Positions 6,521 to 49,242 of a stretch of DNA of 64,000 bases are shown here, in pieces. How positions within the stretch are numbered: the stretch's first letter is position 1; every line of letters starts with the position of its first letter. The position numbers were made by a program, and so were the translations under genes. Source of the DNA: a virus; the IMG/VR virus record IMGVR_UViG_3300043548_000722, positions 1 to 64,000 of that record, one strand, 5' to 3'. The notes under the pieces are model-generated. The model saw nothing but the letters and a program-made list of their open reading frames with translations. It was not told where the DNA came from and did not search any database.

Positions 6521-6534
6521 TGCAGTCCTCGCGG

Positions 6535-12184: not shown

Positions 12185-13299
12185 TCTCCACCCCCGTCGT
12201 CAATTAGGGTTGACTTTTTGGACTTCTGCCGGACCTTATAAACACCATATGCCGCAGCTACTGGTAAACCTGCCCCGACAACGTATTTTAAGGCAGTAGA
12301 GGGAGACTTTGCAACCATCTTCCCTATCATCATTGCACCGCGAACAGCAGCAGCTGGAGCCTTACTCACAATCTTGCCTAGCCCAGCCGTCTTTTCACCA
12401 AACAGAGACTCTGTCAGTGCCTTGTTTGCATACTCAAGATCGGCCTGAATATCGCGCAACGCGATCTCAAGGTGAATGTGCCGCTCCTCCACCGCCGCCA
12501 CCTTTGAGAATGAGGCAGGAAGTGGGTGCGCCGGATTAATCTCTCCGAAGGACGCGGTCTTCGTCAGCCGAAGCCCAGCAGTCGTCCGCTCCTTTCCAAG
12601 CAGGTACGCCGAGAGATCTGATGCGACCTTGGTCGCGGTCTCCTGGGATGTGGAGCTCCAGTCTGTGCCCTCGAAGCAGGCATGAAGAACGTCCTCTACG
12701 GACACGCCGTCCTTCACTGCGGCGTAGGCCTCTTTGGATAGCTCGCGCCTCGCGGACATGATCTCCGTATCGAGCGATCTGAGTTCCGCAGTCACCGCGG
12801 CTGATGCCTCTTTCAAAGAGTCATGGATCTTCTTGAGATCATGAAGGCCCTGTGCCTGCGCAAACGGAGCACTGTAGTCGGTGTCCGACGCAGACTTCAT
12901 CAGCTCGTCAAAGGCATTAGCTGCTTTGAACTTCGGGAGTCTCGGCGCGGATGCAGATGCAGTTTTTTCTGTCATAACACCACCGGACAAAGAAGTTGCG
13001 CGCTTAGGCGCCGATGCGACCTTCTCCGCGCGAAGAACCTCGGCTGCGACTTCTGCATCCGGAGGGTCGAAGACGATGTACCGATCGGCGCTGGAAGCCT
13101 GCTTGTGCATCCGCTCGTAAGTGTCGTGGTACGTCATCTCGCAGATACGCCGAACATGCTCAGCTGTCAAGTTTGCGCCACAGGCACTTGCCTGCTTGAT
13201 TACGGCCTCTGTCAGCGGAGTACCTCTGGACAGGAAGTCCGAGGTCGCCGCATGAGCGAGACCTTGGAGATACTCTTTGGTGATCGGACTGCCGTACAT
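12181..13299 (-). CDS. KxAS-rich head-region protein (eight KxAS)
   Basis: Start reassigned to ATG 13299 to avoid overlapping the divergent HTH gene. KQAS x2, KVAS x2, KTAS x2, KSAS, KEAS; hydrophobic tail after GEKTA. Confidence 0.75.
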   Translation of the reverse strand: MYGSPITKEYLQGLAHAATSDFLSRGTPLTEAVIKQASACGANLTAEHVRRICEMTYHDTYERMHKQASSADRYIVFDPPDAEVAAEVLRAEKVASAPKRATSLSGGVMTEKTASASAPRLPKFKAANAFDELMKSASDTDYSAPFAQAQGLHDLKKIHDSLKEASAAVTAELRSLDTEIMSARRELSKEAYAAVKDGVSVEDVLHACFEGTDWSSTSQETATKVASDLSAYLLGKERTTAGLRLTKTASFGEINPAHPLPASFSKVAAVEERHIHLEIALRDIQADLEYANKALTESLFGEKTAGLGKIVSKAPAAAVRGAMMIGKMVAKSPSTALKYVVGAGLPVAAAYGVYKVRQKSKKSTLIDDGGGE

Positions 13300-13317
13300 C
13301 AGAAACCTGGAGTGGGA

Positions 13318-13989
13318 ATGAAGTACTCGATGAGTATAGCCGACGCGGGACGCGTCCTCGGCAAGACAGAGAGAACTATCCGAAACTACATCAAGACGGG
13401 ACAACTTACAAGTACTGGTAGCGGAAGATCTCGACTACTGGATCCAGAAGAAGTCCACGAGCTTCTTGCCGCCCCAAAAGGAGAGAGGATTACTGTAGCC
13501 GAGATCCGCACCCTTCGCGCAACAGTGCGGCGTCTTGAGTCCGAGGTTGCAGTCATCCAGCACATGCTGGACCTGCGGAACGAAAGTCTTGGAATGACGA
13601 GTCAGTACGCGAAGGAGCTTCACGCTGCCATGATCGAGCAGTATGGGCGCCCTGCTGGCAGTTACTCCACGACCGAGATGCGGGCATGGGCCGACATCTT
13701 TACACGGATGGATGAGGCCGATCTTCTGACATTCAGCGGTGCGGGGGCTGCATGGAAGATTCTACTTCGCCTGTGCGGACGGATGCTCTCTGAGGTGACC
13801 GCGCATCCAGACTACTCCACGTCTCTTGAGCTTCAGCAGATTCATCGTCTACTGGCAGATGGGCGGCGGAGGTTGAAGATCTCTATCTTCATCTACTTGG
13901 AAAGCTTGAGTGACTCGGCCACGGCATTAGAGCGTACCCTAAAAGAGGACGTGTTTGAGCGTCTAAAAAATGACCTAAAACAGTCATAA
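13318..13989 (+). CDS. HTH DNA-binding protein (excisionase/MerR-like HTH plus coiled coil)
   Basis: Track ORF 12823..13989; likely start 13318 (SD GGAG). MSIADAGRVLGKTERTIRNYIKTGQL is an HTH_17-like pattern. Confidence 0.75.
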   Translation: MKYSMSIADAGRVLGKTERTIRNYIKTGQLTSTGSGRSRLLDPEEVHELLAAPKGERITVAEIRTLRATVRRLESEVAVIQHMLDLRNESLGMTSQYAKELHAAMIEQYGRPAGSYSTTEMRAWADIFTRMDEADLLTFSGAGAAWKILLRLCGRMLSEVTAHPDYSTSLELQQIHRLLADGRRRLKISIFIYLESLSDSATALERTLKEDVFERLKNDLKQS

Positions 13990-14463: not shown

Positions 14464-14495
14464 ACTGACGCCCCGGCATCTGCCGGGGCGTCAGT
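14464..14495. terminator. perfect 15-bp inverted repeat between convergent genes
   Basis: ACTGACGCCCCGGCA-TC-TGCCGGGGCGTCAGT, overlapping the terminase stop codon. Confidence 0.7.
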
Positions 14496-16215
14496 CCTTA
14501 TCCAGTTCTCGATCAATTTTAGCACTTGGAACGAGAATATCGGGACGGGGGTTGTCGATCATCGAAGCCATGAAGCACAGCAACAGCGCATGAAAACTAT
14601 CATCGGTAGTATTTGGCGACTTCTTATACTCAGTCATGCGCGTTCTCTCGTTGTATTCCGAGAAGATGGCCAGCATGTCCGCTCCGTAAGGACTGCCGAA
14701 CTCGGACCACTTGGGGAACCGGAATACTGACCGTCGCTTGATGGCGTTGAAGATCGCGCTCATTACCTCCGAGCGATGGATGAGAAAGCGGCCCTTTGCA
14801 GAGTCGTAGTTCACGATCGTCTTGGGGGTTGAGTACTGATACCGCACCACGCGCTGTGATCCGTAGAGACGAAGAAGCTCGTCGTTCGGCCAGTAGCCTC
14901 CTCCATAGTCCACCCCGACTCGCGACACTTCGAAGGCGGCAAGCAGCTTCTTGATCTTGGAGATTTGCTCTTTCGGCTCCGCCTCCGCGCCAGTGAAGCG
15001 GTGAGCAAAGACGATACGAAAGAAGCCGTCGATGTAGGCCCCGATCATGATGATCGTGTATGAGTTGTTCGAGTCCTGTCCCCAGTCAATCCCGGCGTAG
15101 ACCTGCTTTCCTCTCAGCTTGGTCATGAATTCTTTTAGCTTGTCCGGTTTAAAAGAGAACTCTCCATCGCAACAAGCCTGAACATCTCCCTGCATCAGGG
15201 GTCGTTGGCCTGAGTCGAAGCTGGCCCCAAGCACCTCGTTGTAGAACTTGGCGCGCGGGTACTGGTTGTACTTGGTGAGAATGTTGCTCCACTCCAACCA
15301 CGGGACCATCAACTGTGGGATGCGGAAGCCCTCGAAGATGTCGAACTTCGGGTTGGGATTTCCTGTCTTGACCCACTGGGCAAGTGGGTGGTCCGGACGG
15401 ATGACCTCCCCGCATCGATCGCACGACAATCCTTTGATGCCAATGTTCCGTTCCCCAAGAATGTTCCAGTGCCAGGAGCCGGGATTGTTTGGAAGGCCGT
15501 GTCGGTCACAAGGAACCGCCCATTCGTTCTGAGTGGAGTACGCGTCCCAGTAGACCTGGATCGAGTTGTCCAAGCTCTTGGGGGTTCCGCTGTAAATGAA
15601 CCACTTGAATGGACTGTGGGACGCTGCCTCCTCGATGACTGGGATGTTGTCCAACAGGAGGTCCTGAAACTCGTCCATGCAAATGAGATCGGCGGACAGA
15701 CCGCGACAGCGGTCTGCGTTCAGAAACGCATACCTGAGCTTGATCTCGCTGCGATTGATCGCCTTCTTCTCAAAGACGTTGTCAGTGAGATGCATCGGGA
15801 ACCAGGTCTTCAGATCAGGACAAGTCTCCAGCGGCTCCTTGAGTCTCGTCTTGGAAAACTCCTTCGTCTGCTGGCTCGAAGGGGAGACGTAGAGAATGCG
15901 AAAGTGCGGAATGAGACACGCATAAGACAGCGTCTTGTTCCCGAGGGTCGTGCTCTTTTCCACCTGACGCCCGCACATCAAAAGGACGCGTGGAGCCTGG
16001 ATGTCGTAGATTTCCCGTAAGTATCTACGCTCGGCGAAAGAGAAGTTCTCCAATTGCCGCGTGTGCGGGTTGGGCATCATCATCGTCGTCTCGATGAACT
16101 GAGACGGCCGGACAGGGATCTGCGCGTCACGGATGTCCTGCTCACTCAGGCGGACCTGGTCCACAGTCGGCGGCGTGTAGTCCCAGGGACCGGACAGTGA
16201 GTTCAGAAAACTCAT
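14491..16215 (-). CDS. terL: terminase large subunit
   Basis: Walker A variant GRQVEKST, Walker B ICMDEFQD, SGTP coupling motif, nuclease GIDWG and DDSFHA, Zn ribbon. Start reassigned to 16215 (SD GGAG); track start is 16272. Confidence 0.92.
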   Translation of the reverse strand: MSFLNSLSGPWDYTPPTVDQVRLSEQDIRDAQIPVRPSQFIETTMMMPNPHTRQLENFSFAERRYLREIYDIQAPRVLLMCGRQVEKSTTLGNKTLSYACLIPHFRILYVSPSSQQTKEFSKTRLKEPLETCPDLKTWFPMHLTDNVFEKKAINRSEIKLRYAFLNADRCRGLSADLICMDEFQDLLLDNIPVIEEAASHSPFKWFIYSGTPKSLDNSIQVYWDAYSTQNEWAVPCDRHGLPNNPGSWHWNILGERNIGIKGLSCDRCGEVIRPDHPLAQWVKTGNPNPKFDIFEGFRIPQLMVPWLEWSNILTKYNQYPRAKFYNEVLGASFDSGQRPLMQGDVQACCDGEFSFKPDKLKEFMTKLRGKQVYAGIDWGQDSNNSYTIIMIGAYIDGFFRIVFAHRFTGAEAEPKEQISKIKKLLAAFEVSRVGVDYGGGYWPNDELLRLYGSQRVVRYQYSTPKTIVNYDSAKGRFLIHRSEVMSAIFNAIKRRSVFRFPKWSEFGSPYGADMLAIFSEYNERTRMTEYKKSPNTTDDSFHALLLCFMASMIDNPRPDILVPSAKIDRELDKD

Positions 16216-16224
16216 GATTTCTCC

Positions 16225-16232
16225 GTCATAAG
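16225..16232 (+). promoter_or_regulatory. GTCATAAG candidate promoter element
   Basis: AAAA-N14-GTCATAAG followed by hairpin TGCTCA-CGA-TGAGCA, upstream of ORF 16271. Confidence 0.5.
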
Positions 16233-16270
16233 AATTTTGCTCACGATGAGCATAAGGGGGTTTCGACATC

Positions 16271-16840
16271 ATGGCTATCGTCTCTGGTTATGAAGTTCGG
16301 CAGATTCGTGGAGAGGCCAGCTTCGCGCTGGTTCTCCACCTCCTCGATCTGAAGGCGCTGACGAGCGCGACCAGCATCCGCATGGTTTCCGAGGATGTCT
16401 CGGAGATCTTGCGTTTCCTCAAGAGCCGCGAGGATCGGTTCGGGGAAGAGATCAACGTCAAGTCCGCCCGGCCCCTGAAGCTGACGCTTCGGGGGAAAGA
16501 GCGGGTCGGAAAGGTGGCGGGTCACTCCGTCACCATCGATGAGTGGTTCGGGCTTCGGGCTTGGACGTGGCTCGACATGGAGGGGGAAGGCGGGCAGATC
16601 AACGTCCCCGTCCTCGTGGCGGAAGTCGGACTCCACGAGCTCAAGCCCGAGGAGGGAGAGTCCCTCCAGAAGATGTTCCGCGAGTACGTCGCGGGCACCC
16701 TCGCGGAACTCCGGACCACCCACCCGCTGCGCTCCGTCTGGCAGGTTACGCTGGACGGGCATGGACGATACATCTTCGACAGCGCACCCGCCGCTCAGTC
16801 TGCGGTGGGTGCCAATGGCGGTAAGGAGCTTCGAGCGTAG
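16271..16840 (+). CDS. hypothetical protein
   Basis: 189 aa, SD AAGGGGG, coding-like codon bias. Confidence 0.65.
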   Translation: MAIVSGYEVRQIRGEASFALVLHLLDLKALTSATSIRMVSEDVSEILRFLKSREDRFGEEINVKSARPLKLTLRGKERVGKVAGHSVTIDEWFGLRAWTWLDMEGEGGQINVPVLVAEVGLHELKPEEGESLQKMFREYVAGTLAELRTTHPLRSVWQVTLDGHGRYIFDSAPAAQSAVGANGGKELRA

Positions 16841-17093
16841 TCTGCTCGGAGACCTCTACGCCTGGGATCTGGTGCCGCAGGTGGACCCCCTCAAGTGGGT
16901 GTTCCACCTGCGGCTGTGTCGCCACATTACAAAAGAGGAGGTTCCTTTTTTTAGGTCCCTCCTCAAAGAGTGGTGTGAGGCAAACGACGCCATATACAAG
17001 AAGTCCCACTGGGATAAGTGGGACTTCAAGGCGGTGATCTTGATTAAGGGCTTAGGACCGATTCGCGAGAACGATCCGTTTCAAGCCTCTTGA
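16815..17093 (+). CDS. hypothetical protein
   Basis: C-terminal part of track ORF 16539..17093; probable start MAVRSFER at 16815. Confidence 0.5.
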   Translation: MAVRSFERSLLGDLYAWDLVPQVDPLKWVFHLRLCRHITKEEVPFFRSLLKEWCEANDAIYKKSHWDKWDFKAVILIKGLGPIRENDPFQAS

Positions 17094-17437
17094 AGACAGC
17101 GATCCACCAGATCGAGAAAATTCTCGGTGTAGTGACTGTAGTTGAAGAACGGCGACTCGCAGACTTTTTTAGCCCGCACTGCTAAGGACTCGAACTCTGG
17201 AACATAGGATGCGCTGAAGTCATCCGTCTTCCCAAAGTGCGCTTCGATGATTTCGGCCAGAAGGGCCTGGAAGTCCTTGTGCCGAACATTGAAGAACTGG
17301 TAGATCAAGTCGTCGTTCTTGACGACGATCACTGCTTTGAACTTCTTCCCTCGGTACTCCGCACGGGGAGGGAGGGAGACCTTGACTTCATGCCCCGGCT
17401 TTGAACGCTCGGGGTCTTCCATGAATGTGGGGATCAT
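17081..17437 (-). CDS. hypothetical protein
   Basis: Start coupled (TAATG) to the upstream stop at 17437. Confidence 0.6.
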   Translation of the reverse strand: MIPTFMEDPERSKPGHEVKVSLPPRAEYRGKKFKAVIVVKNDDLIYQFFNVRHKDFQALLAEIIEAHFGKTDDFSASYVPEFESLAVRAKKVCESPFFNYSHYTENFLDLVDRCLQEA

Positions 17438-17994
17438 TACCCAATGTCCGCGTAGAGTTTGAAGGTTCCGCCGGTGGCATTGTGCAGCACCAAGTTCGCC
17501 CAATTGGCAGCCACTGGGAACTCCATGGTGAACTTCTCACCGAGAGTGAGGAGCTGGTGTTTGATCACGTACTCCGCTACGTCAGCTTCGTACTTAGAGG
17601 ACGTGTAGTTCGGCGACACCAGCTGTCTGAACCAGTGACTAGCGGTCGTCAGATTGGGTGCGCCGAGATTTGAAAGCCGAAGGTTGAGGTGCAGATCCTG
17701 GGTCGGTGCTGCAACCACCTCAATGCCAAGAATGATTCTCTCAGCATTTGCGACATTGATGGCCGACGAGACATGACCAGCCGCTAGCGCAGCGGCGTAG
17801 TTTGCGGAGTTCCCCGACCCATTGTAGATCGGAGTGGTTCCGCGATCGCGCGTCGCATCATTGAAGAAGATCGAGATCCAACCGCTGCTGTTTCCATAGT
17901 AATCAGGACCGGCCCATCCTGGAATACTGTTGGCTTCCATGAATTCAATGAGTTGGTTCTCGTCACGAACTGTCTTAGAGCGAAGAACAGGCAT
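17437..17994 (-). CDS. hypothetical protein (possibly structural, beta-rich)
   Basis: 185 aa ORF coupled on both sides. Confidence 0.6.
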   Translation of the reverse strand: MPVLRSKTVRDENQLIEFMEANSIPGWAGPDYYGNSSGWISIFFNDATRDRGTTPIYNGSGNSANYAAALAAGHVSSAINVANAERIILGIEVVAAPTQDLHLNLRLSNLGAPNLTTASHWFRQLVSPNYTSSKYEADVAEYVIKHQLLTLGEKFTMEFPVAANWANLVLHNATGGTFKLYADIG

Positions 17995-18857
17995 TATCGC
18001 TTCTCCGAGTGAAGGATCTCGTCGCGAGATCGATTCGAGATGGAACCCGTGGGCGACAAGTCTAACAGGCTCGGGATCTTCTTGTTGCCATGAAGGACCT
18101 TGAACTTCTCAAACTTCTTGAGCGTCTCTTGCAGGGCCGTGTCTCCGGCCTGCACACGCTCGTCGATCCGCGCAAGTCCGCGCGCAAGGTTACCAAGCAT
18201 CTCCACCTTCTTGTCTGAGAGCGGAAGTGTCCGCGTCTCCAAAAAGGTGTGGTACAGCTCGGATCGAACCTCCATCATGATCTTCTTGCCGTCCAGCTCT
18301 TTGCGGATCCCGGCCCGATATGCCGCAGCTTCGGGGCCTGCGCGCACAGCCAGATGATACGACTGGAGTAGTGGACTGACCCTCCCGCTCGTGTCTCCGT
18401 TGAGGTACTTGGCCCAGCCGCCAACTCCCATCAGATCCGAGTTCCAGAAGTAATGACGGAACGCAGCCACCGCCAACTCTGATACCGGATGGCCGAGCTC
18501 GGCAAGATTGCGGGATGCCTCGCTGTACGGCACCCCGCTCATCAGCAGTGTCTCGAGCTTTTCTCTCACAATCGGAGCAGAGAGAATCTTGTCTCTCATC
18601 TCTTCTGTGTTTTTGTCCGGATGTACCAGCGAATAGAGGCCGTTCTTCCGGAGCCAGGACGTTGTGGCGCGATGCTTAGAATCCCAAGGACGGAAGTCCT
18701 TGGGAACCTTGGCAAGAATCTCTTGGCACTTCTTGAAGTCCTCATCAGAGACCTCTGAGAGCCCGTGAATCTCCAAATTCAGGTTTACGTCGTCATGGGA
18801 CAGTGCTGCCCCGATCACGAGTAGATACTTGATGAAGAATTCCGCGGGATGTGCCAA
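17994..18857 (-). CDS. hypothetical protein (possible terminase small subunit)
   Basis: 287 aa helical protein with an HTH-like centre, a few genes upstream of terL. Function is a guess. Confidence 0.45.
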   Translation of the reverse strand: MAHPAEFFIKYLLVIGAALSHDDVNLNLEIHGLSEVSDEDFKKCQEILAKVPKDFRPWDSKHRATTSWLRKNGLYSLVHPDKNTEEMRDKILSAPIVREKLETLLMSGVPYSEASRNLAELGHPVSELAVAAFRHYFWNSDLMGVGGWAKYLNGDTSGRVSPLLQSYHLAVRAGPEAAAYRAGIRKELDGKKIMMEVRSELYHTFLETRTLPLSDKKVEMLGNLARGLARIDERVQAGDTALQETLKKFEKFKVLHGNKKIPSLLDLSPTGSISNRSRDEILHSEKR

Positions 18858-18864
18858 GAGCCCC

Positions 18865-19416
18865 TCAGTAGCGGTAGGGACTCCCGGATCTATTTCCGTA
18901 CGTACCGCCGCTCAGCCGACCTTCAAGTCTATCTAGCCTGTCCATCGTCTCGTAATGCATCCTATGGCGCTCGGCCTCCTCCATGTCTCGCCTTTCCTGA
19001 AGCTGCCGCTTTCCAAGATCAACTGCGGCCTGCCCGAAGTTCCCAGACTCTTGCAGTCCCTTCATTCTCTCAATTTCTTCTGAATCAGAGATGGCCATCG
19101 AACCTCCGACGAGGGCTCCGAATCCACCTCCGACTGCCGCACCTAGCGCGGCACTCCGCGCGTTAGCTCCTGCAAGAAGACCAAGTGCCCCACCAAATGC
19201 ACCTCCGGTCAATCCTCCGACCCCCACTGCTTTGCCGAAATGAGTTTTGGGCTCCGCAGCTTTGGCGTTGGCGTACTCCTCCATACGAGCCATACGAGTC
19301 TCGTACGGCTCCAACGCCTCCGAGACGTCAGGCTGGCTAAGACCAAAGACACGAGCTTCCTTGGTCCACAGAGGGTGATCCGCAAGAATAACTTGATAGG
19401 CTGCAAGTTTGTCCAC
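18865..19416 (-). CDS. MDK(L/I)AAYQ-leader glycine-zipper protein
   Basis: GTG start; MDKLAAYQVILADHPLWTKEA followed by a long GxxxG zipper hairpin. Confidence 0.75.
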   Translation of the reverse strand: MDKLAAYQVILADHPLWTKEARVFGLSQPDVSEALEPYETRMARMEEYANAKAAEPKTHFGKAVGVGGLTGGAFGGALGLLAGANARSAALGAAVGGGFGALVGGSMAISDSEEIERMKGLQESGNFGQAAVDLGKRQLQERRDMEEAERHRMHYETMDRLDRLEGRLSGGTYGNRSGSPYRY

Positions 19417-19424
19417 GACTACTC

Positions 19425-19985
19425 CTACTCGTCGGCATACTCGCCAGGATAGTCATACTCTTCGGGTATGGGCATGTCACGGTCTTCCAGTTTCTTACGG
19501 ATAAGGGCGACTCGGGGGTCCTGACGTAGCGCCAAGCGGGCAAGTTCGGGCTCCACAGAGCGAGCGCCGTAGACATTGTCCAGCCCGCCGAGTACGCCAA
19601 TCCCCGTACCAATGCCGACTATTCCCTTTGCAAGACCCGGATCCACACGATAGCCGAGCATACGAGGAATGCCAAGCGCGAGTCCTCCCTTCAGTGCTCC
19701 ACCAATCGCGCCTCCTACGGCAGCTCCACCGAGATAATGGCCGACACCTGCCGGAGAAGTAGCAGCTACATCCTGAAGGTACTTTTGATACCGAGGCACT
19801 TGCAAATCCTCCGGCTCATACTGGCTGCTCACAAACTCCGGGCGGAAGTACAAACCAGGGATTCCCGATAGGTTACCGGCGGGACGTGACACTCCCTCGG
19901 CTGCCATTGCTGGCTCGTCCTGGGCAGTCTTTTCCCACAGGGGGTGCTCAGATAGAAGCATTTGGTAAGCGGCGATCTTGTCCAT
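19425..19985 (-). CDS. MDKIAAYQ-leader glycine-zipper protein
   Basis: MDKIAAYQMLLSEHPLWEKTA followed by a GxxxG zipper hairpin; SD GAGG. Confidence 0.75.
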   Translation of the reverse strand: MDKIAAYQMLLSEHPLWEKTAQDEPAMAAEGVSRPAGNLSGIPGLYFRPEFVSSQYEPEDLQVPRYQKYLQDVAATSPAGVGHYLGGAAVGGAIGGALKGGLALGIPRMLGYRVDPGLAKGIVGIGTGIGVLGGLDNVYGARSVEPELARLALRQDPRVALIRKKLEDRDMPIPEEYDYPGEYADE

Positions 19986-20051
19986 GGTGACATCCTCTGG
20001 AGGTTTCTGACGGGAATCGTAGCTGGAACAGCTGCACTACGCAAGGACTGC

Positions 20052-21554
20052 TCAAACTTGATACGTTTTAAGGCTCTTCAGTCCTGAGATGACATCTTCG
20101 AGCGCGAACATAGCACGAACAGCTGCGGTCTTGGGGATGCTTTGCAGGCCGATCTGAGCCGCAAGCACCACGCTCGCCAACTTGGTCGATGCCTCCTCTA
20201 ACTGAGGAAGGAAGTCGATGAAGGTCTCGACGTTCTCCGGGTTGAGGAAGTTTAGCGCAAGAACTGCGTCTACAGAAGCAGTGTCTACAAGTGCCGACGC
20301 CTTCTTATCAAAAGTAATCGCAGAAATCTCCCTCAGCAAGTTAACACGCTGAGGAATCTCTGTATCAAGCATGTCGATTGCTGCTTCCTTGAGAGCCTCA
20401 TGGTAGGTCTCGTCGCGCGTAGAGAGCGGCTGAAGACCAAACATGCGGATCGGCTTACCGGAAGACGCGGCCTTCTCTAGACACGCAGCACTTAGGTTCT
20501 GTGGCATGCCTGCGGCAGCGAGCCAGAACACGCCGTCCACCCAGTCGTGCTCACCCGAGCCAACCTTCTCAAAGACCGGTCCGCTGAGGCGGCAGCCACC
20601 TTCCCATGCGCGAATCTCGGCCATTGTCTCGTATGCGTTGGCCTGTGCTGCCTTCATCAGCTCATTTCCGGCAGCAAGCTGCACTGGGTTCTCCAGCGGC
20701 ATGAACTTGAAGTCTGCGGGAATAGCGATGTCAGTGGTCGAGGATGCGACTGGGCGCACTATGCCCTGTGACGGAATGATGCGAATATCATTTCCATTTA
20801 GATCCTGCGCAGCAAAATACCCGTTGCCTTCGACGTGGACCTTCGTGACGATATTGTATGGCATCGTACACATAATAGCCTTGCCGTTGGTCTTAAGGAA
20901 GACGCCAAGGCCACGTACGTCCGGATTTTCTGGAATTGGTAAGTTGTGGTTTACACCAATGAGAGATCCAGAAATCATAGGCTGAACAGAGTATGCTGTT
21001 CCATTAGTGAACAGCGCGGCACTGGTAGGTGCTCCCTGAACAGGATCAAAAAGGTTGGGAATTACGTATCCCACCAACTGTTTTCCAGTGGTCGCGTCTG
21101 TCACCTTGTAGATGCCAAATGCCGTTACCGGAGCCATCTGCTCTGTCAAAGGATCCGGCTCTGCCTGAACCCCAGTGATTGTTGCAGCTCCGGTCTGATC
21201 TGCCGTCTGTAGCATCTGAGGGGGCAGTACTTGCTGAGCTTGCTGAGCAGACATCTGCGTCTCTTGCGGAGCCATGCCCGCAGGAGCTGCAGAAACCTTC
21301 ACGGAGTAGCCATACCCAGACGGGCGAACCTGAACTACGTCGACCCCCGGCATGAAGCGCAAAGAAGCACTCTTCGCCAGCTCTGACGCGGGAACGATTG
21401 GCTCGGCAGTCAACCTATGAAGAACGCTCATTACGGACGCGTTCTTCTCAATCATACGCCGCACCTCCGGGTCTGCGAACTCGCCCTCAAATCGCGCGAA
21501 GTCAGACTGGTTGATGGTTCCAGAAATGGCAGAACAGAGCGTGCGAGGTTTCAT
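20052..21554 (-). CDS. KxAS-rich virion-region protein
   Basis: 500 aa; KNAS, KSAS, KAAS, KKAS, KLAS. Confidence 0.7.
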   Translation of the reverse strand: MKPRTLCSAISGTINQSDFARFEGEFADPEVRRMIEKNASVMSVLHRLTAEPIVPASELAKSASLRFMPGVDVVQVRPSGYGYSVKVSAAPAGMAPQETQMSAQQAQQVLPPQMLQTADQTGAATITGVQAEPDPLTEQMAPVTAFGIYKVTDATTGKQLVGYVIPNLFDPVQGAPTSAALFTNGTAYSVQPMISGSLIGVNHNLPIPENPDVRGLGVFLKTNGKAIMCTMPYNIVTKVHVEGNGYFAAQDLNGNDIRIIPSQGIVRPVASSTTDIAIPADFKFMPLENPVQLAAGNELMKAAQANAYETMAEIRAWEGGCRLSGPVFEKVGSGEHDWVDGVFWLAAAGMPQNLSAACLEKAASSGKPIRMFGLQPLSTRDETYHEALKEAAIDMLDTEIPQRVNLLREISAITFDKKASALVDTASVDAVLALNFLNPENVETFIDFLPQLEEASTKLASVVLAAQIGLQSIPKTAAVRAMFALEDVISGLKSLKTYQV

Positions 21555-21641
21555 TTTGGGCTCACTTCATCTGAGGTAGGCGATAGAAGACGACAATACC
21601 CTTCAGCCGTCCGGGGTGCTACGGCAAGGCTCCTTGTTGCC

Positions 21642-23255
21642 TTACTCACTACGGAACAGTCCGCTTAGACGATCGAAGACAGAGCGCGGCTTTTCGGCAG
21701 AATCCTTCTTCTTGACTGCCCCCAGTGTTCGAAGAAGTGGGATGTCATCGCCAAGCTCGTCTGCTCTCCGGTGGACGGTGTCTGCGGTTTCGTTGACTAC
21801 TTTCTGAGCTGCGCGGGAGGCTGTGTCGGCCACAAAGCTGGCTCCAGATGTAAGGGCACTCTTGGCCGCAGGAACGATCACATGCTTCATGGCTGCGGTG
21901 CCTCCGGCTCCCGCCGCCGCACCGACTCCGGTGTTGACCGCCAAGGACGTCAAGTGATGCTTTACTCTTTTTTTGTACTCTTCGGGAGTAATTTCACCAC
22001 GATCCAACGCGGCTTTATCGTTTAAATACGCATCTTTTCTGTTATAGACTGCCTTTCCAGCTCCAAGCGCGCCCCCTACAGCGCCAAACCTAGTATACGG
22101 ACTCATTGCCTGCTTTAGGCTGCCAGCCTGGGAAAACTCGTCGCATACGCTCTGCGGCTCTGCCTGGAAAGAAAATCTCTCGCAGTACCCAGATCCATCA
22201 CTCAGGGAGCGAAAGAACGAGCAAGTCTCGCAGCGAAAGTCTCCTGCGGTAGGCCTGTAGTTTGGAGCATCTTCCGCCCCAGCCACTTTTGAGTTCTCTT
22301 TAAATTTTCGAAAAATTTCCCGTGCAGAGCTGACTTTATCCATCTTTTCAGGCTCTAAAGATTCGAGATAACCAGGCTCAAGTTCCTCTCTCCGCCTGTC
22401 AAGTTCAGCGTCAATCTTTCTTCTCTTAGAAGCAATATACTCGTTAGCTAAGTTTTTTGCGAGGGCGACACCAGTTATCGCGCCTCCGACTGCCCCCATG
22501 CGCGCAAATGGACCTGGAAGATCATCCATGTTCCTCGCGATGAATGGAATGGAATGATCGATCATCGTACCTGCGGTGGCTCCGACGATGGATCCGCCCG
22601 CAAAGGCTGGCACCCCAAGGGCGTAATAGGGTACCGTAGACGTCATCAAGTCTCTGCGCTTCTTTTCAAGGTCGGCAGTCGACATCGAATCAAAGCCCGA
22701 GGCAAACTTCCGCTGTCCCGTTCGTGCTGAGCTGATCTTGTTGATGCCCGCGGACGATGCGCCATCGCCAACAACACGACCAAAACCTTGGCGCTGTTGG
22801 TATGGCGGGTACATCTGGTCGATGAGCGATTTCTGCCGCTCAGGTTGATCCGCGGGTCCCTGGAACATTGCGGGGTTGAGCAGCGCAGACTCAATCCGCT
22901 CCGCGGTCAACGGATAGACGTTCCCTCCAAGCTCAAAAGTGTGGAACGGCTGTAGGAGTCGATCCGCAACGATGATCGGGATTCGAACCATATTTTGTGG
23001 ATTTTTTGATGCAGTAGCAGCGGCCGGATCGTTGCGGGCCATCAGAAGCGCATGGCCAAAAGCAAACCCCGCTTCCGGCTCTACTCTCTGCATATTGAGG
23101 TCGATCTCATACTGAGAAAGAAACGGAAGCTGCTGATGCAGGTTACTCAGCACATGCGCGGGCCACTTCGTATCGTCGTCCGGCATCTTGGCGATCGACG
23201 CCATCTTCTCGAAGAAGCTATGCGGATCCACCGGCTTGAGGAAGAGAGATGTCAT
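21642..23255 (-). CDS. modular KxA protein: globular N-domain, glycine-zipper modules, HiPIP-like Cys module
   Basis: Likely ATG 23255 (SD GAGG). EKMAS, NKISS, RKFAS, DKVSS, SKVA and LKQA separate distinct segments. Confidence 0.7.
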   Translation of the reverse strand: MTSLFLKPVDPHSFFEKMASIAKMPDDDTKWPAHVLSNLHQQLPFLSQYEIDLNMQRVEPEAGFAFGHALLMARNDPAAATASKNPQNMVRIPIIVADRLLQPFHTFELGGNVYPLTAERIESALLNPAMFQGPADQPERQKSLIDQMYPPYQQRQGFGRVVGDGASSAGINKISSARTGQRKFASGFDSMSTADLEKKRRDLMTSTVPYYALGVPAFAGGSIVGATAGTMIDHSIPFIARNMDDLPGPFARMGAVGGAITGVALAKNLANEYIASKRRKIDAELDRRREELEPGYLESLEPEKMDKVSSAREIFRKFKENSKVAGAEDAPNYRPTAGDFRCETCSFFRSLSDGSGYCERFSFQAEPQSVCDEFSQAGSLKQAMSPYTRFGAVGGALGAGKAVYNRKDAYLNDKAALDRGEITPEEYKKRVKHHLTSLAVNTGVGAAAGAGGTAAMKHVIVPAAKSALTSGASFVADTASRAAQKVVNETADTVHRRADELGDDIPLLRTLGAVKKKDSAEKPRSVFDRLSGLFRSE

Positions 23256-23266
23256 TCGTACCTCTG

Positions 23267-24352
23267 TCAATCCGCTTCGAGGACTGACGACAGAAAGGAG
23301 CCTTGTCCGGCGAGCGAGTCTACAATATCACTAAGAAGGTCATCCGTCGCAGCTGTCGTAAATCCGAGTGTGTTAAGGGCGACCTTGATCTCAGTAAGCG
23401 ACGCTTGAAGCTTCGTCAGGAACTCTGTCCCAAGCATGACGGGCTGAGCCGTTCCCGCATCTGTTTCCTGCGCGATCCGAAGTTTACCATCCAAGGTTAG
23501 GAGGGCGCTGCCGGATCTCGCGACTTTCAGAGAAAGAGATTGATCCGGGACATCTGCTTCCTCATCGGAGTTGACCTCGAATAAATATACACAAGCGGCA
23601 GGATCGAGAGAAGACGGACGGAGGGCAATAACATCTTCAGGAATTAAGCCCAACAGAGGGTCTTCTATATAAAGCGTCGTTTGCTGTGAAGAAAGTGCGG
23701 GGATTGGGACACTGCCGTCTAGCTCTACTCGATCGGCCTCGGTAAACCCAACTTTACTGCGCACAGACCACGACGGGGACTGGGCAAATTCTCGAACGGT
23801 CGTTTCGTAGTAGAACGCCGGAAAGAAGGTTCCGGCGTCTTCGCTATCAATACAAACTTTTTCCTCGGTGGAGCCGATTGTCTCGACGATCATGTGGCGC
23901 GCGACCACCGTGAGGGTGTCCGTTCGACCCTCTGCCACTATCCGGGAAAGGCCGCTTCCTCGCAGTTCAGTAGTACCGTTTCTGGTAATAAATACTCCAT
24001 TCTGTCCCTCTGCTACGCAGGCCATATCTCCGGGACTAAGGTATGGACGATTTGAGTGGTATGATCCAGGCTTACCGTCCGTTGTGACGGACGAAACCAG
24101 AGGCGCCCCAGCGATTAAGTACGCCCCAGAGTGGTCAGAAGATACCGCCACGAGACAGTGGGATCCTACCTCCGGCATGTAGTGCAGACCGGCGCCGGTC
24201 GCGCTCTGGTACACAGAAGATATGATCCCTGTTACAAATTCTCTCTGAACCTGATCACACCTGACGACACAGGTCCACCGAGAAGGATCGACAGATATAA
24301 TCCTCCCAGAGAAAATTTGTGCGTCAATGGGCTTACGCGGAAAGCTGCTCAT
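23267..24352 (-). CDS. putative baseplate spike (gpV/gp5-type OB fold)
   Basis: GRIISVDP...GLHYMPEVGSHCLVA OB-fold pattern, beta-repeat middle, VMLG-x2-FL-x2-L C-terminal helix. Confidence 0.6.
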   Translation of the reverse strand: MSSFPRKPIDAQIFSGRIISVDPSRWTCVVRCDQVQREFVTGIISSVYQSATGAGLHYMPEVGSHCLVAVSSDHSGAYLIAGAPLVSSVTTDGKPGSYHSNRPYLSPGDMACVAEGQNGVFITRNGTTELRGSGLSRIVAEGRTDTLTVVARHMIVETIGSTEEKVCIDSEDAGTFFPAFYYETTVREFAQSPSWSVRSKVGFTEADRVELDGSVPIPALSSQQTTLYIEDPLLGLIPEDVIALRPSSLDPAACVYLFEVNSDEEADVPDQSLSLKVARSGSALLTLDGKLRIAQETDAGTAQPVMLGTEFLTKLQASLTEIKVALNTLGFTTAATDDLLSDIVDSLAGQGSFLSSVLEAD

Positions 24353-24858
24353 TGATTCGGACGTCTATTCTTTAGGGCGTTGTACCCTAAATAACCTGTC
24401 CCCAGGGCACCCGCACCCGCTGTAGTAAGGGCCGCCCCACCCAGCAGTTGCTGTCCCTGCGTTCTCGCCACGTCGAGCTGTCTCAGCGAAACGGGACCAA
24501 GACCCCGTTCTGCCGCACGCTGGTTAACATTAGCAAGTAGTCTGTCTGTAGCTCCGCTCGTCAGTTTGCCTCCCCTACTGGAAGCCCAGTCCATCATGCG
24601 GCCACCAAGACCAGTCCGAGAACCTGAGACACCCGCACCTCCCGCACCTGCAATTGCTTTACCAGCACGGTAAACACCTCCAGTTACGGCCTTGCCGACA
24701 TCTGCAAGAAGGGCCTCCTTTTCCATTTCCATGAATGCTTGCGCGTATGGAGCAGGGAGCTGTCCATCGCATGTTCCGTACCTCTCGACGAGAACAGATG
24801 CCCTCTTTTCGAGTTCATTGCGGAGTAGAGCTTCTTGGTAGGCGGCGATCTTGTCCAT
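24349..24858 (-). CDS. MDKIAAYQ-leader glycine-zipper protein
   Basis: MDKIAAYQ...ELEKRAS...MEKEA followed by a Gly-rich amphipathic/hydrophobic region; directly downstream of the RNAP. Confidence 0.7.
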   Translation of the reverse strand: MDKIAAYQEALLRNELEKRASVLVERYGTCDGQLPAPYAQAFMEMEKEALLADVGKAVTGGVYRAGKAIAGAGGAGVSGSRTGLGGRMMDWASSRGGKLTSGATDRLLANVNQRAAERGLGPVSLRQLDVARTQGQQLLGGAALTTAGAGALGTGYLGYNALKNRRPNQ

Positions 24859-24865
24859 GGTGACC

Positions 24866-27800
24866 TCAAAGGAAGGAGAAGAAGCCGGGTGACTTTTGCG
24901 GAGCTTGCGGGGCCGGCGTGGGCACTTGACCAGGCTTCGGTATGTTCGTCATTCTATCAGGCACGCCTGGGGCATTGGGGAGCTTTGTTGAGCCCGGAGG
25001 CTCAAGTCCGAACTCTGCCCCGTGCGCGATGCCCGGAATCGGGTGTCCGTGAATGTCAGACTTCCAGTTCTGTGCTGCACCTTCGGTGTACGTCTCCTGG
25101 AGACGCTGGAAGTTTAGCCTCGCCATCCAGTCTTCTTGCCCTGCGAGAGGCATCTTGTCCAGAGGCTTGAGCTGTGGCGAGTGCTTGATCTCGCGCTTGT
25201 TCATTGCGCGCAGTTCCTTGTTCTTCCGCTCGATCTCGGAGAGGGGGACAAGCTGCCCACGCAGGTAGGCGTGATCGTCCCCAGGATCATCCACACGAGT
25301 GAGGTCCGTCATCGCGCGAATCACTGTCTCGATGTTGCGTCTCCTCTCGTTCCCCGTCGTCTCCACGTAAAGCTCGTTGAGAGAGTCCGCGAGGTGCATG
25401 CGAACTGCGCTCATGCTCTTTGTGATGTCGAGGACGTGATGCGGATTCTTTCTCCCCTCAGAGAGTGCCTCTGCCTTGTCGACTTCGACACCAACCCGAA
25501 TGTTTGGCAGCAGCGGGTTGGTGAACGGGACAGTGTGGACTTTACCGGCAATTGTGACTGTCTTACCTCCGAGCGCGTCTGACTCGATCTTCTCGACCTT
25601 TCCGGAGACCGTAGACAGAGTGGCCTCTCCTTTTAGCTTGGCCGGAACCTTGAAGAGGTTTTCTGCCGCCGTGAAGTAGTCTCCCACGCCACTTGTTCCG
25701 CCGACGCCTCCCGTGTGGAAGGTACGCATTTGCATCTGGGTGATCGGCTCTCCAAGCGCATGACCGGCGATGATGCCGACATTGGTGCCGACTGGGTACA
25801 GCGAACCGCGTTCGCTGAGACCGTAACAGGTTGCGCAGATACCCTTGACCTCGTTGCAGTAGAGTGGGGAGCGTACGAGAATCTTCTTGGGGCCGTCGTT
25901 CTTGATCTTACTCCGCAGTTGAGGAGTGATCAGAGTTCCCTTGGGGATGGTTTCCCCGCCCTTCAGAGGAACCTCTCCGGCGAGGAAGCGTCCTTCGATG
26001 TCTGCTTCCATGGACGAAAGCAGGGCACCACGAACTGTTCCGCAGTCCTTTGACTTAATCGTATTGTCGATGACCGTGTTGATTAGCTCCTTCGTCAGGG
26101 CGCCAGGCTTCGCCGTTGCCGATGCGCGGTCAATGGTTCCTTTCCGTGCGCCATGAAGCGACGCATAGTACTGCGAGACCGGAAGGCCCTCTCCGAAGGA
26201 CTTGGTGATCGCGAATGGAACTGTGCGGTTGAGTGGATCCTGCACGAGCAGCGGGCCCATGACCATCTGGCCAAACTGATTCCAATCGCCCTTGGCGCCG
26301 GAGCGTGCCCAGTCCCACATTCCGTTGTCCAGACGGGAGTTGTAGCGGGCCTCTCCAGCTTCCTTGAGTTCCTTGCGGGCCTTCTCGTAGATCGAGATGA
26401 TCTTCTCGTCCTTGGCTGCCTTCGATCCTGCGCCCTTGAGGACGGCCTCTTCCTCTTTCTTGTATTTGGCCAGGATCTCGTCGCGGAGTTTGTATCCGTC
26501 GTGGAAGTCATTGAGCTTCACACTCGACCCATTTTTGAACGCCAAATTAAAGCCGAGGGCTTTCCACTCATCGATCATCTTGGCGAACTCTTCTGGGGTC
26601 GCCCGTGCAATCTTTGTTGCAAACTTCTTCATCTTTCCCTTGGCCATACGGAAAGATGAGTCGTAGAGAAGCTCCTCGTCCCCACGGAACTGCGCCGGCA
26701 GTGTTCGGTTGATCATGAGTCGGCCTGCCGTAGTGGGCTTGCTGTGACCCGTAACCTTGATGACGTTGTAAACCTTCAGCTTGCCGGCCCTCACTGCCTG
26801 AATTGCTTGGTCCTCCGTGAACTGACCCGGAACCGGCTTGCCCCACTCCGTCGCCTGGAAGATTCCAAGAACAGAATCCTGAGACGGCGTCACCATCAGC
26901 CCTCCACTGGTCGGAGAGAAGAGGTTCTTCGAGGGCATCATGTTCTTGGCTTCTTGTACGGCTCCTTCGGTGATGGGCACATAGAGCGCCATCGTGTCTC
27001 CGTCGAAGTCCGCGTTGAAGCCTCCCGTGACGAGGGGATGGATCTTGATCGACTTCCCCTCAATCAGGCGCGGGCGGAACGCCATCAGCGAGAACATGTG
27101 GAGGGAGGGATCGCGTTTCATGAGCGCGGGCCGGTCTCGAACCACCCTCTCAAGGGCCTCGTTGGCGGCCGGATGGTTTTTCTTGATCATCATGCGTGCC
27201 TCTCCCGGAGAGGTCGCACGGCCCATGTTGCGCCACAGTTCCTTGATGACGAAGGGCTTGTACATTTCCATCGCCATCTCTCGAGGCACGCCAACCTCAT
27301 CAAGTGGCATCTCTGGATCTGGCGTGATGACGGAACGGCCGGAAAGATCCTGTCGCTTCCCGAGCACTCCCGTCTGGAAGAAGGACTGCTTCGGCTGATT
27401 GCCAGTAAGCTTGTCCATCAGAGAAGGAACCTGCTTTCCTTCCATCTGCATGCCAGTGACGCGCAGAGCCTTCGTTGTGTTGTAAATCTCGGCCTGAATG
27501 CGCTGGATCTCTCCGACAGGCATTTTCTCTTTTTCGGCCTGCTCAAGTTGCCGCGTCATTTGGCCAATGATTGCGTACATCTTGTTGGCGGGATCGATGA
27601 TCTGCGTGCCGTCAAAGCCAATGCTTACCCTACGGAGTGTCGGAGGCAGAACTGGGAGGACACGGTTGGTGTACGCATCCACAGGCTTGATATCGAGCTC
27701 TTTTAGAGCGCGAAGATACCGAACCCGTTTATAGGCTACATTCAGCTCGTTCTCGGTTGCAGTCTGAAGCTTCTTTTCGGCGGCCTTAAGTTCCGTGTCT

Positions 27801-30800
27801 ACGTCCAGGTCGCGAAGCTTTTCTTCGAGAACTGCGAAGCCTGACTTTTGGCCGACGGAGCCGGACTCTGTCAGCAACTTTTGAAACTCCCCGTCTGGCA
27901 TTTTCAGGAGTAGACGGATGGGCTCTTCAAACACAGGGTTGGGGATCCGAACCCCAAGATCCATATGTGTCCACTTCGTACCTTCCAGGCCTCCCGTCTT
28001 AACCTTGTCAAATAGGCCACCCTTTTCTTCTTTGGTGAGAGAGCCTTTGGCAGCAAGCGTTTTCTCAGGGAATGCCAGCGCACCCGAACTTTGAGCAAGC
28101 GTCTGCTTATCCGTCATGGGCATGAGAGAGTACTCTCTACCCTTGCGCTCAGTGTAGACGCCCATCGCGCGCAAGTAGTGAGTAAACTGCTCCATCGAAC
28201 GAGGAACCTTCGGAGGGGGCGGACGCTCTCCGCGCATGATGCGGGTCCAGACATCCTCTGCCTGCTCCCGGTCAGACTTGTAGGTCTGCATTTCTCGAAG
28301 GTTGTTTTTTGCACCATAGGCAAGGAGGGTGTACGAATCGAGGCCTCCGATTCTCTGGCCTCCCTCTCCAATGCCCGAACCCTGTGACGCCTCTCCCGTG
28401 GTCTTGTACGCGTAGCCGAAACCACCGGCACGGGCCGAGATCTTTTTCTCCGCCTGGTGATCCAGCTTCAAGATGTACTGGTTGCCTACGAGAACGTTTC
28501 CGAGGTTCTCGCCCGTCTCAGGATCGAATAGCTCCTCCGTATCCGAGACACTGTGTTTCTGCATCAAGTCCTTGACCATCGCAGAGTAGTCTGTAGAGGC
28601 ATCAAAGTTGTTGACGACGAAGGGCTTACCCGTCTTTAGGGCCACCTTACCCGCCACGCTCTCGAGAACCTGTCCAGGATTCATACGCGAGGGAATGCCT
28701 GCGGGAGACAACAAGACCTGGACGTGGTTGCCGTCCTTATCTTTCGGCATCTGGTCGTCGGGCAGGATCTTGGTCACGATCCCTTTGTTTCCATGACGGC
28801 CGGAGAGCTTGTCTCCGACCTCCATTGTCTGTTCAGTACGGATGTAGACCATGATCCGCCGACCGTTGTTGACCACCCGCGCAACTGTCCCATTGTACTC
28901 GTGATCCCACTTCACAGACGCGTCGGAGTAGTCCTGAATCGCGCCCTTCAAGCGACGACGGATGTCCTCCGTGTCTTTGGATATTGCCATCTTCTGAAGT
29001 TTTGCAATCAAAACATCCCCAGGCTCGACCTTCTGGCCGACCTGGATAAGTCCATTGTCATCGAGCTTCTGAAGAATCTCAGGCGTCGCCTTTACGGGTC
29101 CAGCATACTGGCGCCAGAGTTTCTTGTTGACGACGATGTTCGGGTGCATCTCCGCTTCAGCAACGTGAAGATGGCTCGACACAAGCTTCTCGGCGGCGGA
29201 CTCCGAGATGACAATGCCGTCCTCGAAGTTGTACCCACGATACGGAATGTATGCGACTCGCAGGTTTGTTCCGAGAGACAGCTTTCCCTGCTTCGTAAAG
29301 TTTGAGTCGGCGAGAAGCTGGCCTTGGCGAACTTTATCGCCCACAGCAACCACCGGATCGGAGTGAAGCATGTGCTTCGCGCCATTGAGCGGGAAGTTGT
29401 TGTAGATGGCGTGGGTGTACTTCTTACCGTCTGTACCCAAAACAATAATACGGTCTTTTTTAACCTCAGTGACATTACCATCCGCATCAGACAGGACGGC
29501 TGCGGTGGCTCCAACAATGTCCTCGTACGTTGATCCCGCAGATGCCTGTGTCTGGACCAGCGGGGCCTCACGGTTTCTCAAGCCAACAGCCTGCTCTTGG
29601 TGCTTAGCGGCCATCATGGCGCGGTTGCCATTGTCGTTTTGTACAAACGGAATCAGGTTTGCACTGGCTGCGAAGAGGAGCTTTGCGGATGGAAGGATGT
29701 AGTCAACATCCTTCCATGCCCGCTTCGTTGTGTTCCTGTCCTTGTCATATACAACGACAAACTCAGAGAGTGGCGTGACCTTAGCCGTTCCATCTGGCTT
29801 CTTCTCGACCTTGGCCTGGTCAGGATACGCGACAACCGCCCGCTCCAGATCGGCGGCACTCTTTCGTTCAATCTTTCCAGTGCGGACATTTACGACCTGC
29901 GCCATCAGGTCGTGCCCAAATTTCTGAGCACCCAGCGGAACGTGGAGGATGATTCCAGTGTGCGAACTTTCCGGGGTCTGAAGTGGGTCAAGCATCCCGA
30001 GATGGCTGGGATTGATCAGCTTATCCTGCATCAGGTTGACGTTGTCTCCCTTGATGCCTCCAAACTCTGCGCCCAAGATGGTTGTGCGCGTATGATTGGA
30101 AAGGAACTGGAGAGGATTTGTCTGCGTTGGAAGCTGACCGGCTTTAAAGGGTTTAATGATCGCGGCGCCATACCCAGACACAGATGCGGGAATAATGTCC
30201 TGGATTCTATCCTTGCGATCGACATTGTTACGGATCTTGCGCGTGAGCGCATAGATCGTCTTGCCCTTTGTCAGTTCTTCATAGACGAAGTCCTCTGCCC
30301 CAAAAAGTCTTTTGTTTGTGAGAGACTGACGGTCATCCTCGGGAACATCTCCACGGCTGATGTCCACCAGTTTCTTTGCCGAAAGTAGCAGGGCTTCGCC
30401 CGTGATCGACGAGAACTCCTTGCCGAAGGCAGACTTCATTGTCTGTGGGCTGACCTCAGCAGACTCAAATGTCTCCTTTACATAGGCTGCCGCAGCTGAC
30501 ACTTCCGGAGGCTTGTAGTCCGGTCCCGCGCGCCGACCCTCAACCGCCTTGTGGAAGGAAAGCAACGCCTTCGAGCTACCCTTGGCCTCGTTGACGGCAA
30601 AAATCTTTTCCCCGAGCGCGCTCTTCATCTGCCCGTCGCTAACGCCCATCGCTACCAGGATTGGGTAGATCGGCACCTCCACCGACGATGTCGCGCTGCT
30701 CTTGATCGTCATCGTGATCAAGCCGAGCTTCTTAGGATCTTTACGTTCAATGTAAAGATCGAAGGAACCAACCTTGCTGCCTGCGGCGACGTTCCATTTT

Positions 30801-35050: not shown

Positions 35051-35053
35051 AGT

Positions 35054-49234: not shown

Positions 49235-49242
49235 GGTGAAGG

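Follow-up and report, generated by a model that had tools for sequence, protein, structure and literature searches.

A conserved N-terminal tag on unrelated small proteins of an uncultured phage lineage is a candidate capsid-targeting propeptide

Introduction

Why should small proteins of one virus begin with the same twenty or so residues and then continue in different ways? The question is raised by the first 64 kb (64,000 nucleotides, hereafter the window) of the 107,650-bp IMG/VR virus record IMGVR_UViG_3300043548_000722, labelled G000 (CheckV completeness 58%), in which three minus-strand open reading frames (ORFs), 18865-19416, 19425-19985 and 24349-24858, share the N-terminus MDK(I/L)AAYQ. 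G000 comes from an uncultured phage of ~180 kb, with a large terminase at 14491-16272 (PHROG E 2e-53), a capsid-protein-like major capsid protein at 4393-5523 (minus strand) and a fused beta-beta' RNA polymerase at 24866-31216 (minus strand), a single ORF of 2116 residues with both RNA polymerase beta and beta' domains. An earlier note on this DNA took the shared start for a portable capsid-targeting leader of the kind known from phage T4. There, various internal proteins dock on the prohead core by means of a 10-residue N-terminal capsid targeting sequence (CTS), as do foreign proteins to which it has been fused, and the protease gp21 removes it at L/I-x-E (PMC9026906, PMC3012670); the T4 internal proteins are small and basic, and their genes are poorly conserved among relatives (PMC9026906, PMC3012670). 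Here we follow this leader through metagenomic sequence and examine the head genes and the protease that accompany it. Coordinates are window positions unless labelled otherwise; G001-G006 denote related IMG/VR records, L0xx matched contig loci and P00xx leader-family proteins.

Results

All three ORFs lie inside one co-oriented minus-strand string that contains head genes, and each has a Shine-Dalgarno-like GAGG or AGGAG 5-7 nt upstream; scans of 17.8-25.2 kb for promoters and terminators gave no excess over shuffles. The shared leader described by the earlier note is genuine: a hidden Markov model (HMM) of it finds the three starts in six-frame translation at 39-51 bits (E 1e-10 to 1e-14), and each leader is 20-21 residues long and ends in K-x-A within residues 18-21. 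The leader of 19425-19985 (186 aa), encoded by 21 codons at 19923-19985 on the minus strand, is of the canonical HPLW type, ends in KTA at residues 19-21 and scores 50.7 bits. That of 18865-19416 (183 aa, GTG start), also of 21 codons (19354-19416, minus strand), ends in KEA at residues 19-21 and scores 41.5 bits. In the third protein, 24349-24858 (169 aa), which lies beside the RNA polymerase gene, the leader is a 20-codon variant (24799-24858, minus strand; 38.8 bits) in which ELEKRA replaces HPLWxKEA, so that KRA occupies residues 18-20. The leaders have a net charge of -1 to 0, and the most hydrophobic 19-residue windows of the proteins fall in the bodies; amphipathic-helix character of the tag was not above that of shuffles.

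Behind the leaders the picture is mixed. The proteins had been called otherwise different, which holds for 24349-24858, whose similarity to the tandem pair is limited to the first ~20 residues, but not for 18865-19416 and 19425-19985, which align weakly as full-length paralogs (27% identity, E 1e-5). Similarly, the Gly-zipper bodies attributed to all three are present in the tandem pair, with GxxxGxxxG in both, and absent from 24349-24858. The body of 18865-19416 (18865-19353, minus strand) includes a linker, paired Gly zippers (residues 67-104) and, at the C-terminus, a charged helix region that ends in GSPYRY, and has orthologs in P0013 and P0021; that of 19425-19985 (19425-19922, minus strand), a candidate packaged cargo, is acidic (isoelectric point (pI) 4.9), with Gly zippers at residues 87-134. 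The body of 24349-24858 (24349-24798, minus strand) carries a GTCDGxMP..Y..AF module, a further K-x-A at residues 47-49 and a Gly/Ala-rich basic tail (pI 10); in this RNA-polymerase-adjacent family the residues around K18/A20 and K47/A49 vary, whereas these positions themselves are fully or almost fully conserved, and it is the sole leader protein of the window with a syntenic counterpart in most relatives checked. No Pfam family was found for the three proteins at E<=0.01 and no useful match in PHROGs, and the Pfam Gly-zipper models PF13441, PF05433 and PF13488 were unmatched by them at gathering score; a leader protein of G001 reached 22.5 bits against PF13441, under the cut-off of 28.9. Across all tag proteins examined, Pfam and PHROGs returned nothing reaching curated thresholds.

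Two further ORFs, 8420-8707 and 34028-35050, had been credited with similar leaders, but neither matches the leader profile. The KIA of the former is not retained in the sister genome, and the N-terminus of the latter is the product of a gene split, the relatives G001, G002 and G003 having a single ORF of 620-637 aa. The split between ORFs 35054-35842 and 34028-35050 (34028-35842, minus strand) lies just ahead of an internal T-K-T-A|G junction, where a short duplication creates a new MNK... start loosely resembling the leader.

A degenerate DNA pattern of the first eight codons, searched in IMG/VR, led to the sister phage G001 (164,603 bp; RNA polymerase 86% identical). In six-frame translations of G000 and G001 the leader HMM found four clear copies each, five of them beyond the three of the window, and their bodies include a kinase-like protein, a 125-residue non-glycine protein and further glycine-zipper proteins. 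A profile built from these eight leaders was then searched against 1.84 billion cluster representatives (E<=0.001). It returned 140 matches, 133 of which carry the leader at residue 1; the remainder, which are repeat proteins, were taken as false positives. Residues 1-40 of 19425-19985, used as query in a word-based search, retrieved no protein other than 19425-19985 itself, and a literature search for the tag sequence found no relevant paper.

The 133 members share the consensus M-[DN]-K-[IL]-A-A-Y-E-[ML]-L-L-E-[DN]-H-P-L-W-x-K-E-A, in which K3, A5 and Y7 are invariant and L11, P15, L16 and W17 are conserved in more than 90%. Conservation stops at A21, no later column having a consensus. K-x-A is found within residues 13-40 in 127 members, its K at 18-20 in 112, a share somewhat inflated by the K and A columns of the search profile. 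Stripped of the leader, 132 bodies fall into 97 BLAST components (E 1e-4), 82 of them singletons. The proteins are short (median length 120; bodies from 20 to about 340-360 residues) and mostly basic (median pI 10.3; above 9 in 122 of 133), and GxxxGxxxG occurs in 48 bodies. Because synonymous sites of the leader differ freely and the upstream DNA regions are unrelated, selection acts on the leader peptide and not on the DNA, which rules out a conserved nucleotide element such as a promoter, a ribosome-binding block or an RNA structure. The starts at 19985 and 24858 are indeed identical at 29 of 30 nt, including six upstream bases, as had been pointed out; since two leaders from one genome resemble each other no more than leaders from different genomes do (permutation p 0.48 for amino acids, 0.32 for nucleotides), this identity reflects at most one local event, and concerted evolution or gene conversion of the leaders within a genome is unsupported.

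The loci that hold the leader genes are plastic. Both tandem genes of the window lie in a 1.2-kb stretch (slot B, 18858-20051, minus strand) that is absent from G001, G002 and G003, with the genes on either side, 17994-18857 and 20052-21554, directly adjacent there, and that holds one leader gene in G005 and G006; flanking repeats marking the insertion were not found. Further leader-gene slots are found after the homolog of 17081-17503 and elsewhere. The RNA-polymerase-adjacent slot is the only one filled in every genome in which it could be examined, and its body in G003 has no BLAST match to that of the window. In two JGI contigs, L055 and L072, three leader genes whose bodies are unrelated stand in a row. 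The kinase-like cargo has an invariant T-K-[IVL]-A-A junction in four homologs, the G001 copy of which bears a different 20-residue N-terminus. In P0005, two leader-cargo units are fused by read-through, and P0006 and P0073 share two modules whose order is reversed between them and which each begin directly after K-x-A. From these variable slots, arrays, the fusion, the permutation and the alternative leader on the same cargo, we conclude that the leader together with K-x-A behaves as a portable cassette; the portability proposed in the earlier note is thus well supported.

The kinase-like leader protein of G000 (336 residues) is encoded outside the window, at G000 91112-92122 (minus strand; L025:7112-8122). 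It has the motifs LGSGAEG, V.K, GNPGN and KIIDF, and its ESM Atlas neighbours are effector kinases (SteC, OspG), with protein-kinase structures at template-modelling scores of 0.45-0.48. The kinase reading draws on these motifs and ESM Atlas leads only, as AlphaFold2 on four sequences gave an unusable model (predicted local-distance difference test (pLDDT) 42). Two other arrangements were seen among the modular proteins. P0002 has two complete leaders in tandem ahead of one body, P0116 being the single-leader form of a similar protein. At G005 45410-47383 (plus strand; L051), the homolog of 20052-21554 has an extra N-terminal glycine-zipper unit joined through L-E-K-K-A|S, a polyprotein form of genes that are separate in other genomes.

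The K-x-A that closes the leader is also the characteristic motif of the head genes. In an unbiased scan of the head block, K.A ranked first among 400 X.Y patterns (88 against 35.9 expected, z 10.1); a control set gave 24 against 26.3 expected. Tested against shuffles, only 6155-6655, 6535-7131, 8753-9733, 12181-13404, 20052-21554 and 35829-36923 were individually enriched at p<=0.003, and between 37 and 107 kb there was no K-x-A-enriched protein. Among these, 12181-13404 (minus strand; 13 K-x-A against 4.3 expected) is a candidate scaffold or core protein that may be cut into pieces, and 35829-36923 (minus strand; 10 against 2.3) a candidate core or scaffold protein. The site logo is [LF]-E-K-[VT]-A-S, with Ser next in 37 of 87 sites. 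A conserved K-x-A stands near the N-terminus of the capsid protein (K-T-A at residues 23-25, the presumed propeptide cut site), of the protease described below (residue 37) and of many head-block proteins without assigned function, in G000 and G001 alike, and half of the head-side proteins (12 of 24) have a K-x-A with its K at residues 10-42, compared with 17% (11 of 65) elsewhere (p 0.0027). K.A was again the top pattern in the head block of the cultured Vibrio phage D69 (50 against 21, z 7.6).

A candidate for the enzyme that acts at this motif is encoded at 9744-11639 (minus strand). Its match to the PHROG head-maturation proteases is weak (E 1.5e-4). Modelled from 35 homologs, its domain (residues 30-300), flanked by conserved KTAS sites at 37 and 293, reached a pLDDT of 84 and a predicted template-modelling score of 0.82, and the best PDB match of the model was T4 gp21 (5jbl_B; Z 9.3, root-mean-square deviation 3.0 over 133 residues), followed by 34 herpesvirus protease entries (Z 5.3-7.5), with unrelated folds scoring lower. 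On the strength of this model we assign 9744-11639 as a predicted prohead protease of the gp21/assemblin fold. More than 250 homologs were found, on contigs up to 199 kb; several of ~1000 residues carry the intein/homing-endonuclease domains PF14528, PF13403 and PF14890.

The fused RNA polymerase may belong to the same group of proteins. Its first 20 codons (31157-31216, minus strand) end in T/A-K-E-A, which is kept in five genomes (the window, G001-G003 and G005), one of them only 64% identical, while the preceding 17 residues vary; this N-terminus is a possible propeptide, and the polymerase may itself be a propeptide-bearing, packaged virion protein. Outside the window, the ORF at G000 78351-79181 (minus strand) has a 12-residue N-terminus ending in K-T-A, which is K-L-A in G001, with different preceding residues.

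Family contexts were drawn from IMG/VR and JGI pattern scans, and the following statement on lineage covers the contigs that could be placed. Six IMG/VR records carry the canonical leader, namely G002-G006 and the record behind L032/L057, with G001 as a seventh. The six have homologs of the window capsid protein (83-92%) and/or of the fused RNA polymerase (64-83%), and hold two or three leader genes per fragment. All six are fragments of a single uncultured phage lineage, whose RNA polymerase is a beta-beta' fusion and whose genomes are roughly 160-200 kb; the lineage is widespread, occurring in marine and freshwater metagenomes. A scan of 185,579 bacterial and archaeal genomes, one per species, did not turn up the leader pattern. 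The nearest cultured phages are the Vibrio phages D69, D148 and D181 (capsid protein 25% and RNA polymerase 28.6% identical), and the canonical leader was not found in D69. Phage D69 (L074; record positions 148106-148285 and 153114-157834) has the same gene order of portal, RNA polymerase and head genes, and a 59-residue MDKVA... glycine-zipper gene lies between its two RNA polymerase ORFs. In G001 the terminase ORF has 1006 residues, compared with 593 in the window, and the homolog of 40504-41913 has 881, compared with 469 (G001 48167-51187 and 74900-77545); the added length suggests intein-like insertions.

Discussion

We regard the tag as probably a capsid-targeting propeptide that is removed by the prohead protease, as in T4, with an unrelated sequence and an Ala cut site. 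This reading follows from the presence of one tag on unrelated small basic proteins, the head-protein motif at the end of the tag, the gp21-fold protease and the plastic cargo loci, which link the leader circumstantially to head maturation. In the mechanism that we envisage, small, mostly basic or glycine-zipper proteins would be made late, together with the head genes, and residues 1-17 of the tag would dock them onto the prohead core or scaffold. After shell assembly, the 9744-11639 protease, which presumably removes the leaders, would cut at the tag-terminal K-x-A and, equally, at K-x-A in the capsid protein, in the core or scaffold proteins and in itself. The mature cargo would thereby be freed inside the head and later ejected with the DNA. 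Docking, the position of cleavage, presence in the virion and ejection are steps that we infer. Because address and cut site would lie in one short cassette, cargo genes could be gained, lost, fused and reshuffled at the K-x-A joint.

In the window, the presumed cut would leave 18865-19416 as a protein of 162 residues, with the glycine-zipper pair and the charged helical tail that ends in GSPYRY, and 19425-19985 as its acidic paralog of 165 residues. The product of 24349-24858 would be a basic Gly/Ala-rich protein of 149 residues, from which the small GTCDG module may in turn be freed by a cut at K47-A49. If ejection proteins are a guide, all three may have a role in the membrane or around the DNA in the head.

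Several observations weigh against a T4-like propeptide. The tag has no sequence similarity to the T4 CTS, and the characterised phage proteases of the gp21 type (T4, phiKZ, SPN3US) all cut after Glu (PMC9026906, PMC10052503). Six of the 133 members have no K-x-A near the tag, and the columns already mentioned raise the share of those that do. Unlike the basic majority of the family, two of the window's three bodies are acidic (pI 4.9 and 6.0), and some tag genes lie far from the head genes, among small genes of unassigned function (G001 152 kb). In the fused P0005 and P0006, the second tag is internal and half degenerate, which may mean that a free N-terminus is not required or that these copies are vestigial.

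How much of the evidence speaks for targeting, and how much for cleavage alone? The tag might be cut by the prohead protease without serving as an address, being instead a recognition exosite or a means of keeping membrane-active or DNA-binding cargo inactive up to maturation, with the bodies or other partners providing entry into the head. The end of the tag at K-x-A, the enrichment of this motif in the head block and the gp21 fold of the protease indeed argue for cleavage and not for targeting as such, and many head-block proteins have K-x-A-ended N-termini of quite different sequence, so that head entry does not need this tag in particular. However, the 17 residues conserved over 97 unrelated bodies go far beyond a three-residue cut site and imply a common binding partner, bodies so diverse are unlikely each to hold an address of their own, and the equivalent residues in T4 have been shown to do the targeting (PMC9026906). 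We therefore hold this explanation to be rather unlikely, although it fares best among the alternatives.

Slightly less likely again is a tag that is retained, uncleaved, as a docking or oligomerisation motif tethering its proteins to the portal, to a packaged RNA polymerase or to a membrane complex. The synteny of one tag gene with the fused RNA polymerase in most relatives examined would suit such a tether, as would the persistence of internal half-tags in fused proteins. Yet conservation breaks off sharply at K-x-A and the junction in the kinase-like proteins is invariant, both of which fit a processing site, K-x-A is enriched only in head-block proteins, and the tag is neither hydrophobic nor measurably amphipathic.

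The third alternative, which we consider improbable, dispenses with trafficking and modular exchange and treats the family as ordinary, fast-evolving small paralogs in which an N-terminal helix is the sole constrained part. It would account for the weak full-length alignment of 18865-19416 and 19425-19985; moreover, divergence past the point of recognition is conceivable for the many bodies with low-complexity Gly/Ala-rich or basic sequence, and there is no excess of leader similarity within genomes that would indicate ongoing gene conversion. What such divergence does not explain is that clearly unrelated folded cargos are tagged, among them the 308-residue kinase-like body and the 125-residue non-Gly body of G001, that the same body occurs with another N-terminus, and that modules are permuted and units fused at K-x-A. 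A leader for a pathway outside the virion, either host export or membrane insertion or the precursor leader of a ribosomally synthesised and post-translationally modified peptide (RiPP), is very improbable: RiPP precursors and polymorphic toxins likewise combine a conserved leader with a hypervariable C-terminal region, and the glycine zippers of about 48 bodies could enter membranes, but a leader with a net charge of -1 to 0, with neither a positive n-region nor a hydrophobic h-region, is not Sec- or Tat-like, bodies of up to about 340-360 residues are too long for a short core peptide, no modification enzymes were seen beside the arrays, whose neighbours are head-morphogenesis or further tag genes, the leader genes are translationally coupled to head genes, and the tag is absent from all bacterial genomes scanned.

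Returning to the capsid-targeting propeptide, we tentatively extend it to a freely recombining loading code, common to the lineage and made up of the 21-residue address tag and its K-x-A cut site, which would fill the capsid with an exchangeable set of injected proteins, comprising glycine-zipper proteins, small basic DNA binders and a kinase-like effector; shorter K-x-A-ended N-termini might also bring in the fused RNA polymerase and a sigma-like factor. In this view the gp21-fold protease would have exchanged Glu, the specificity of every characterised phage relative, for a herpes-like Ala|Ser specificity. This extension is possible, though doubtful as a whole; if it is true, sequence alone would reveal which proteins an uncultured phage group injects. 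Should the tag itself function as we propose, it would mark proteins that are packed and probably injected, in about a hundred unrelated cargo families, most without known function and likely to be rich in host-takeover or anti-defence activities. This would also mean that the loading principle of T4 arose in a distant lineage with a different peptide and cut site, and that a gp21-fold phage protease can have herpes-like Ala specificity. The strongly conserved, self-contained 21-residue tag would in addition be a candidate tool for loading foreign proteins into capsids.

Among known systems, the cargo-loading peptides of encapsulins are similar in that short conserved peptides send varied cargo into an HK97-fold shell, the role suggested here for the tag. 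They differ in being usually C-terminal, in not being removed by a protease and in binding the shell protein directly, and they have no sequence relation to the tag. In the giant phages phiKZ, 201phi2-1 and SPN3US (proteases gp175 and gp245), many head proteins lose N-terminal propeptides, some of 20-24 residues, and the cut motif recurs inside long propeptides and in the protease itself (PMC10052503). Their virions carry RNA polymerase and ejection proteins (PMC10052503). In contrast to the system proposed here, however, those proteases cut after Glu (A-x-E or S/A/G-x-E), the RNA polymerases are split and not fused, and no single conserved tag on dozens of unrelated proteins has been described there.

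The herpesvirus assemblins resemble the window protease in fold, as the 34 structural matches indicate, and cut at sites with the consensus (V/L/I)-x-A|S, to which the putative K-x-A followed by Ser is similar, although P3 here is Lys and not aliphatic. As in the herpes protease-scaffold precursor, the protease domain precedes a site of its own and a long extension at the C-terminus, whereas scaffold cleavage in herpesviruses frees the scaffold from the shell and loads no diverse cargo.

The T4 system remains the nearest in organization. As with the CTS of IPI, IPII, IPIII and Alt, a short N-terminal peptide is found on otherwise unrelated, mostly small basic proteins; it ends at what is probably the short motif of the head protease, the protease has the fold of gp21, and the cargo genes are poorly conserved between related phages. 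The differences are equally clear. The T4 peptide is MKTYQEFIAE-like (PMC9026906) and has 10 residues, compared with the 21, much more strongly conserved, of the tag, and the putative cut falls after Ala in K-x-A instead of Glu in L/I-x-E, in keeping with the head-block scan, in which K.A and not hydrophobic-x-E was the enriched motif. Unlike T4, this lineage encodes a beta-beta' fusion RNA polymerase within its head block, and its capsid protein has cultured relatives of only 25% identity. What is new here is thus a different tag, with a different cut motif, in a lineage that is not T4-like.

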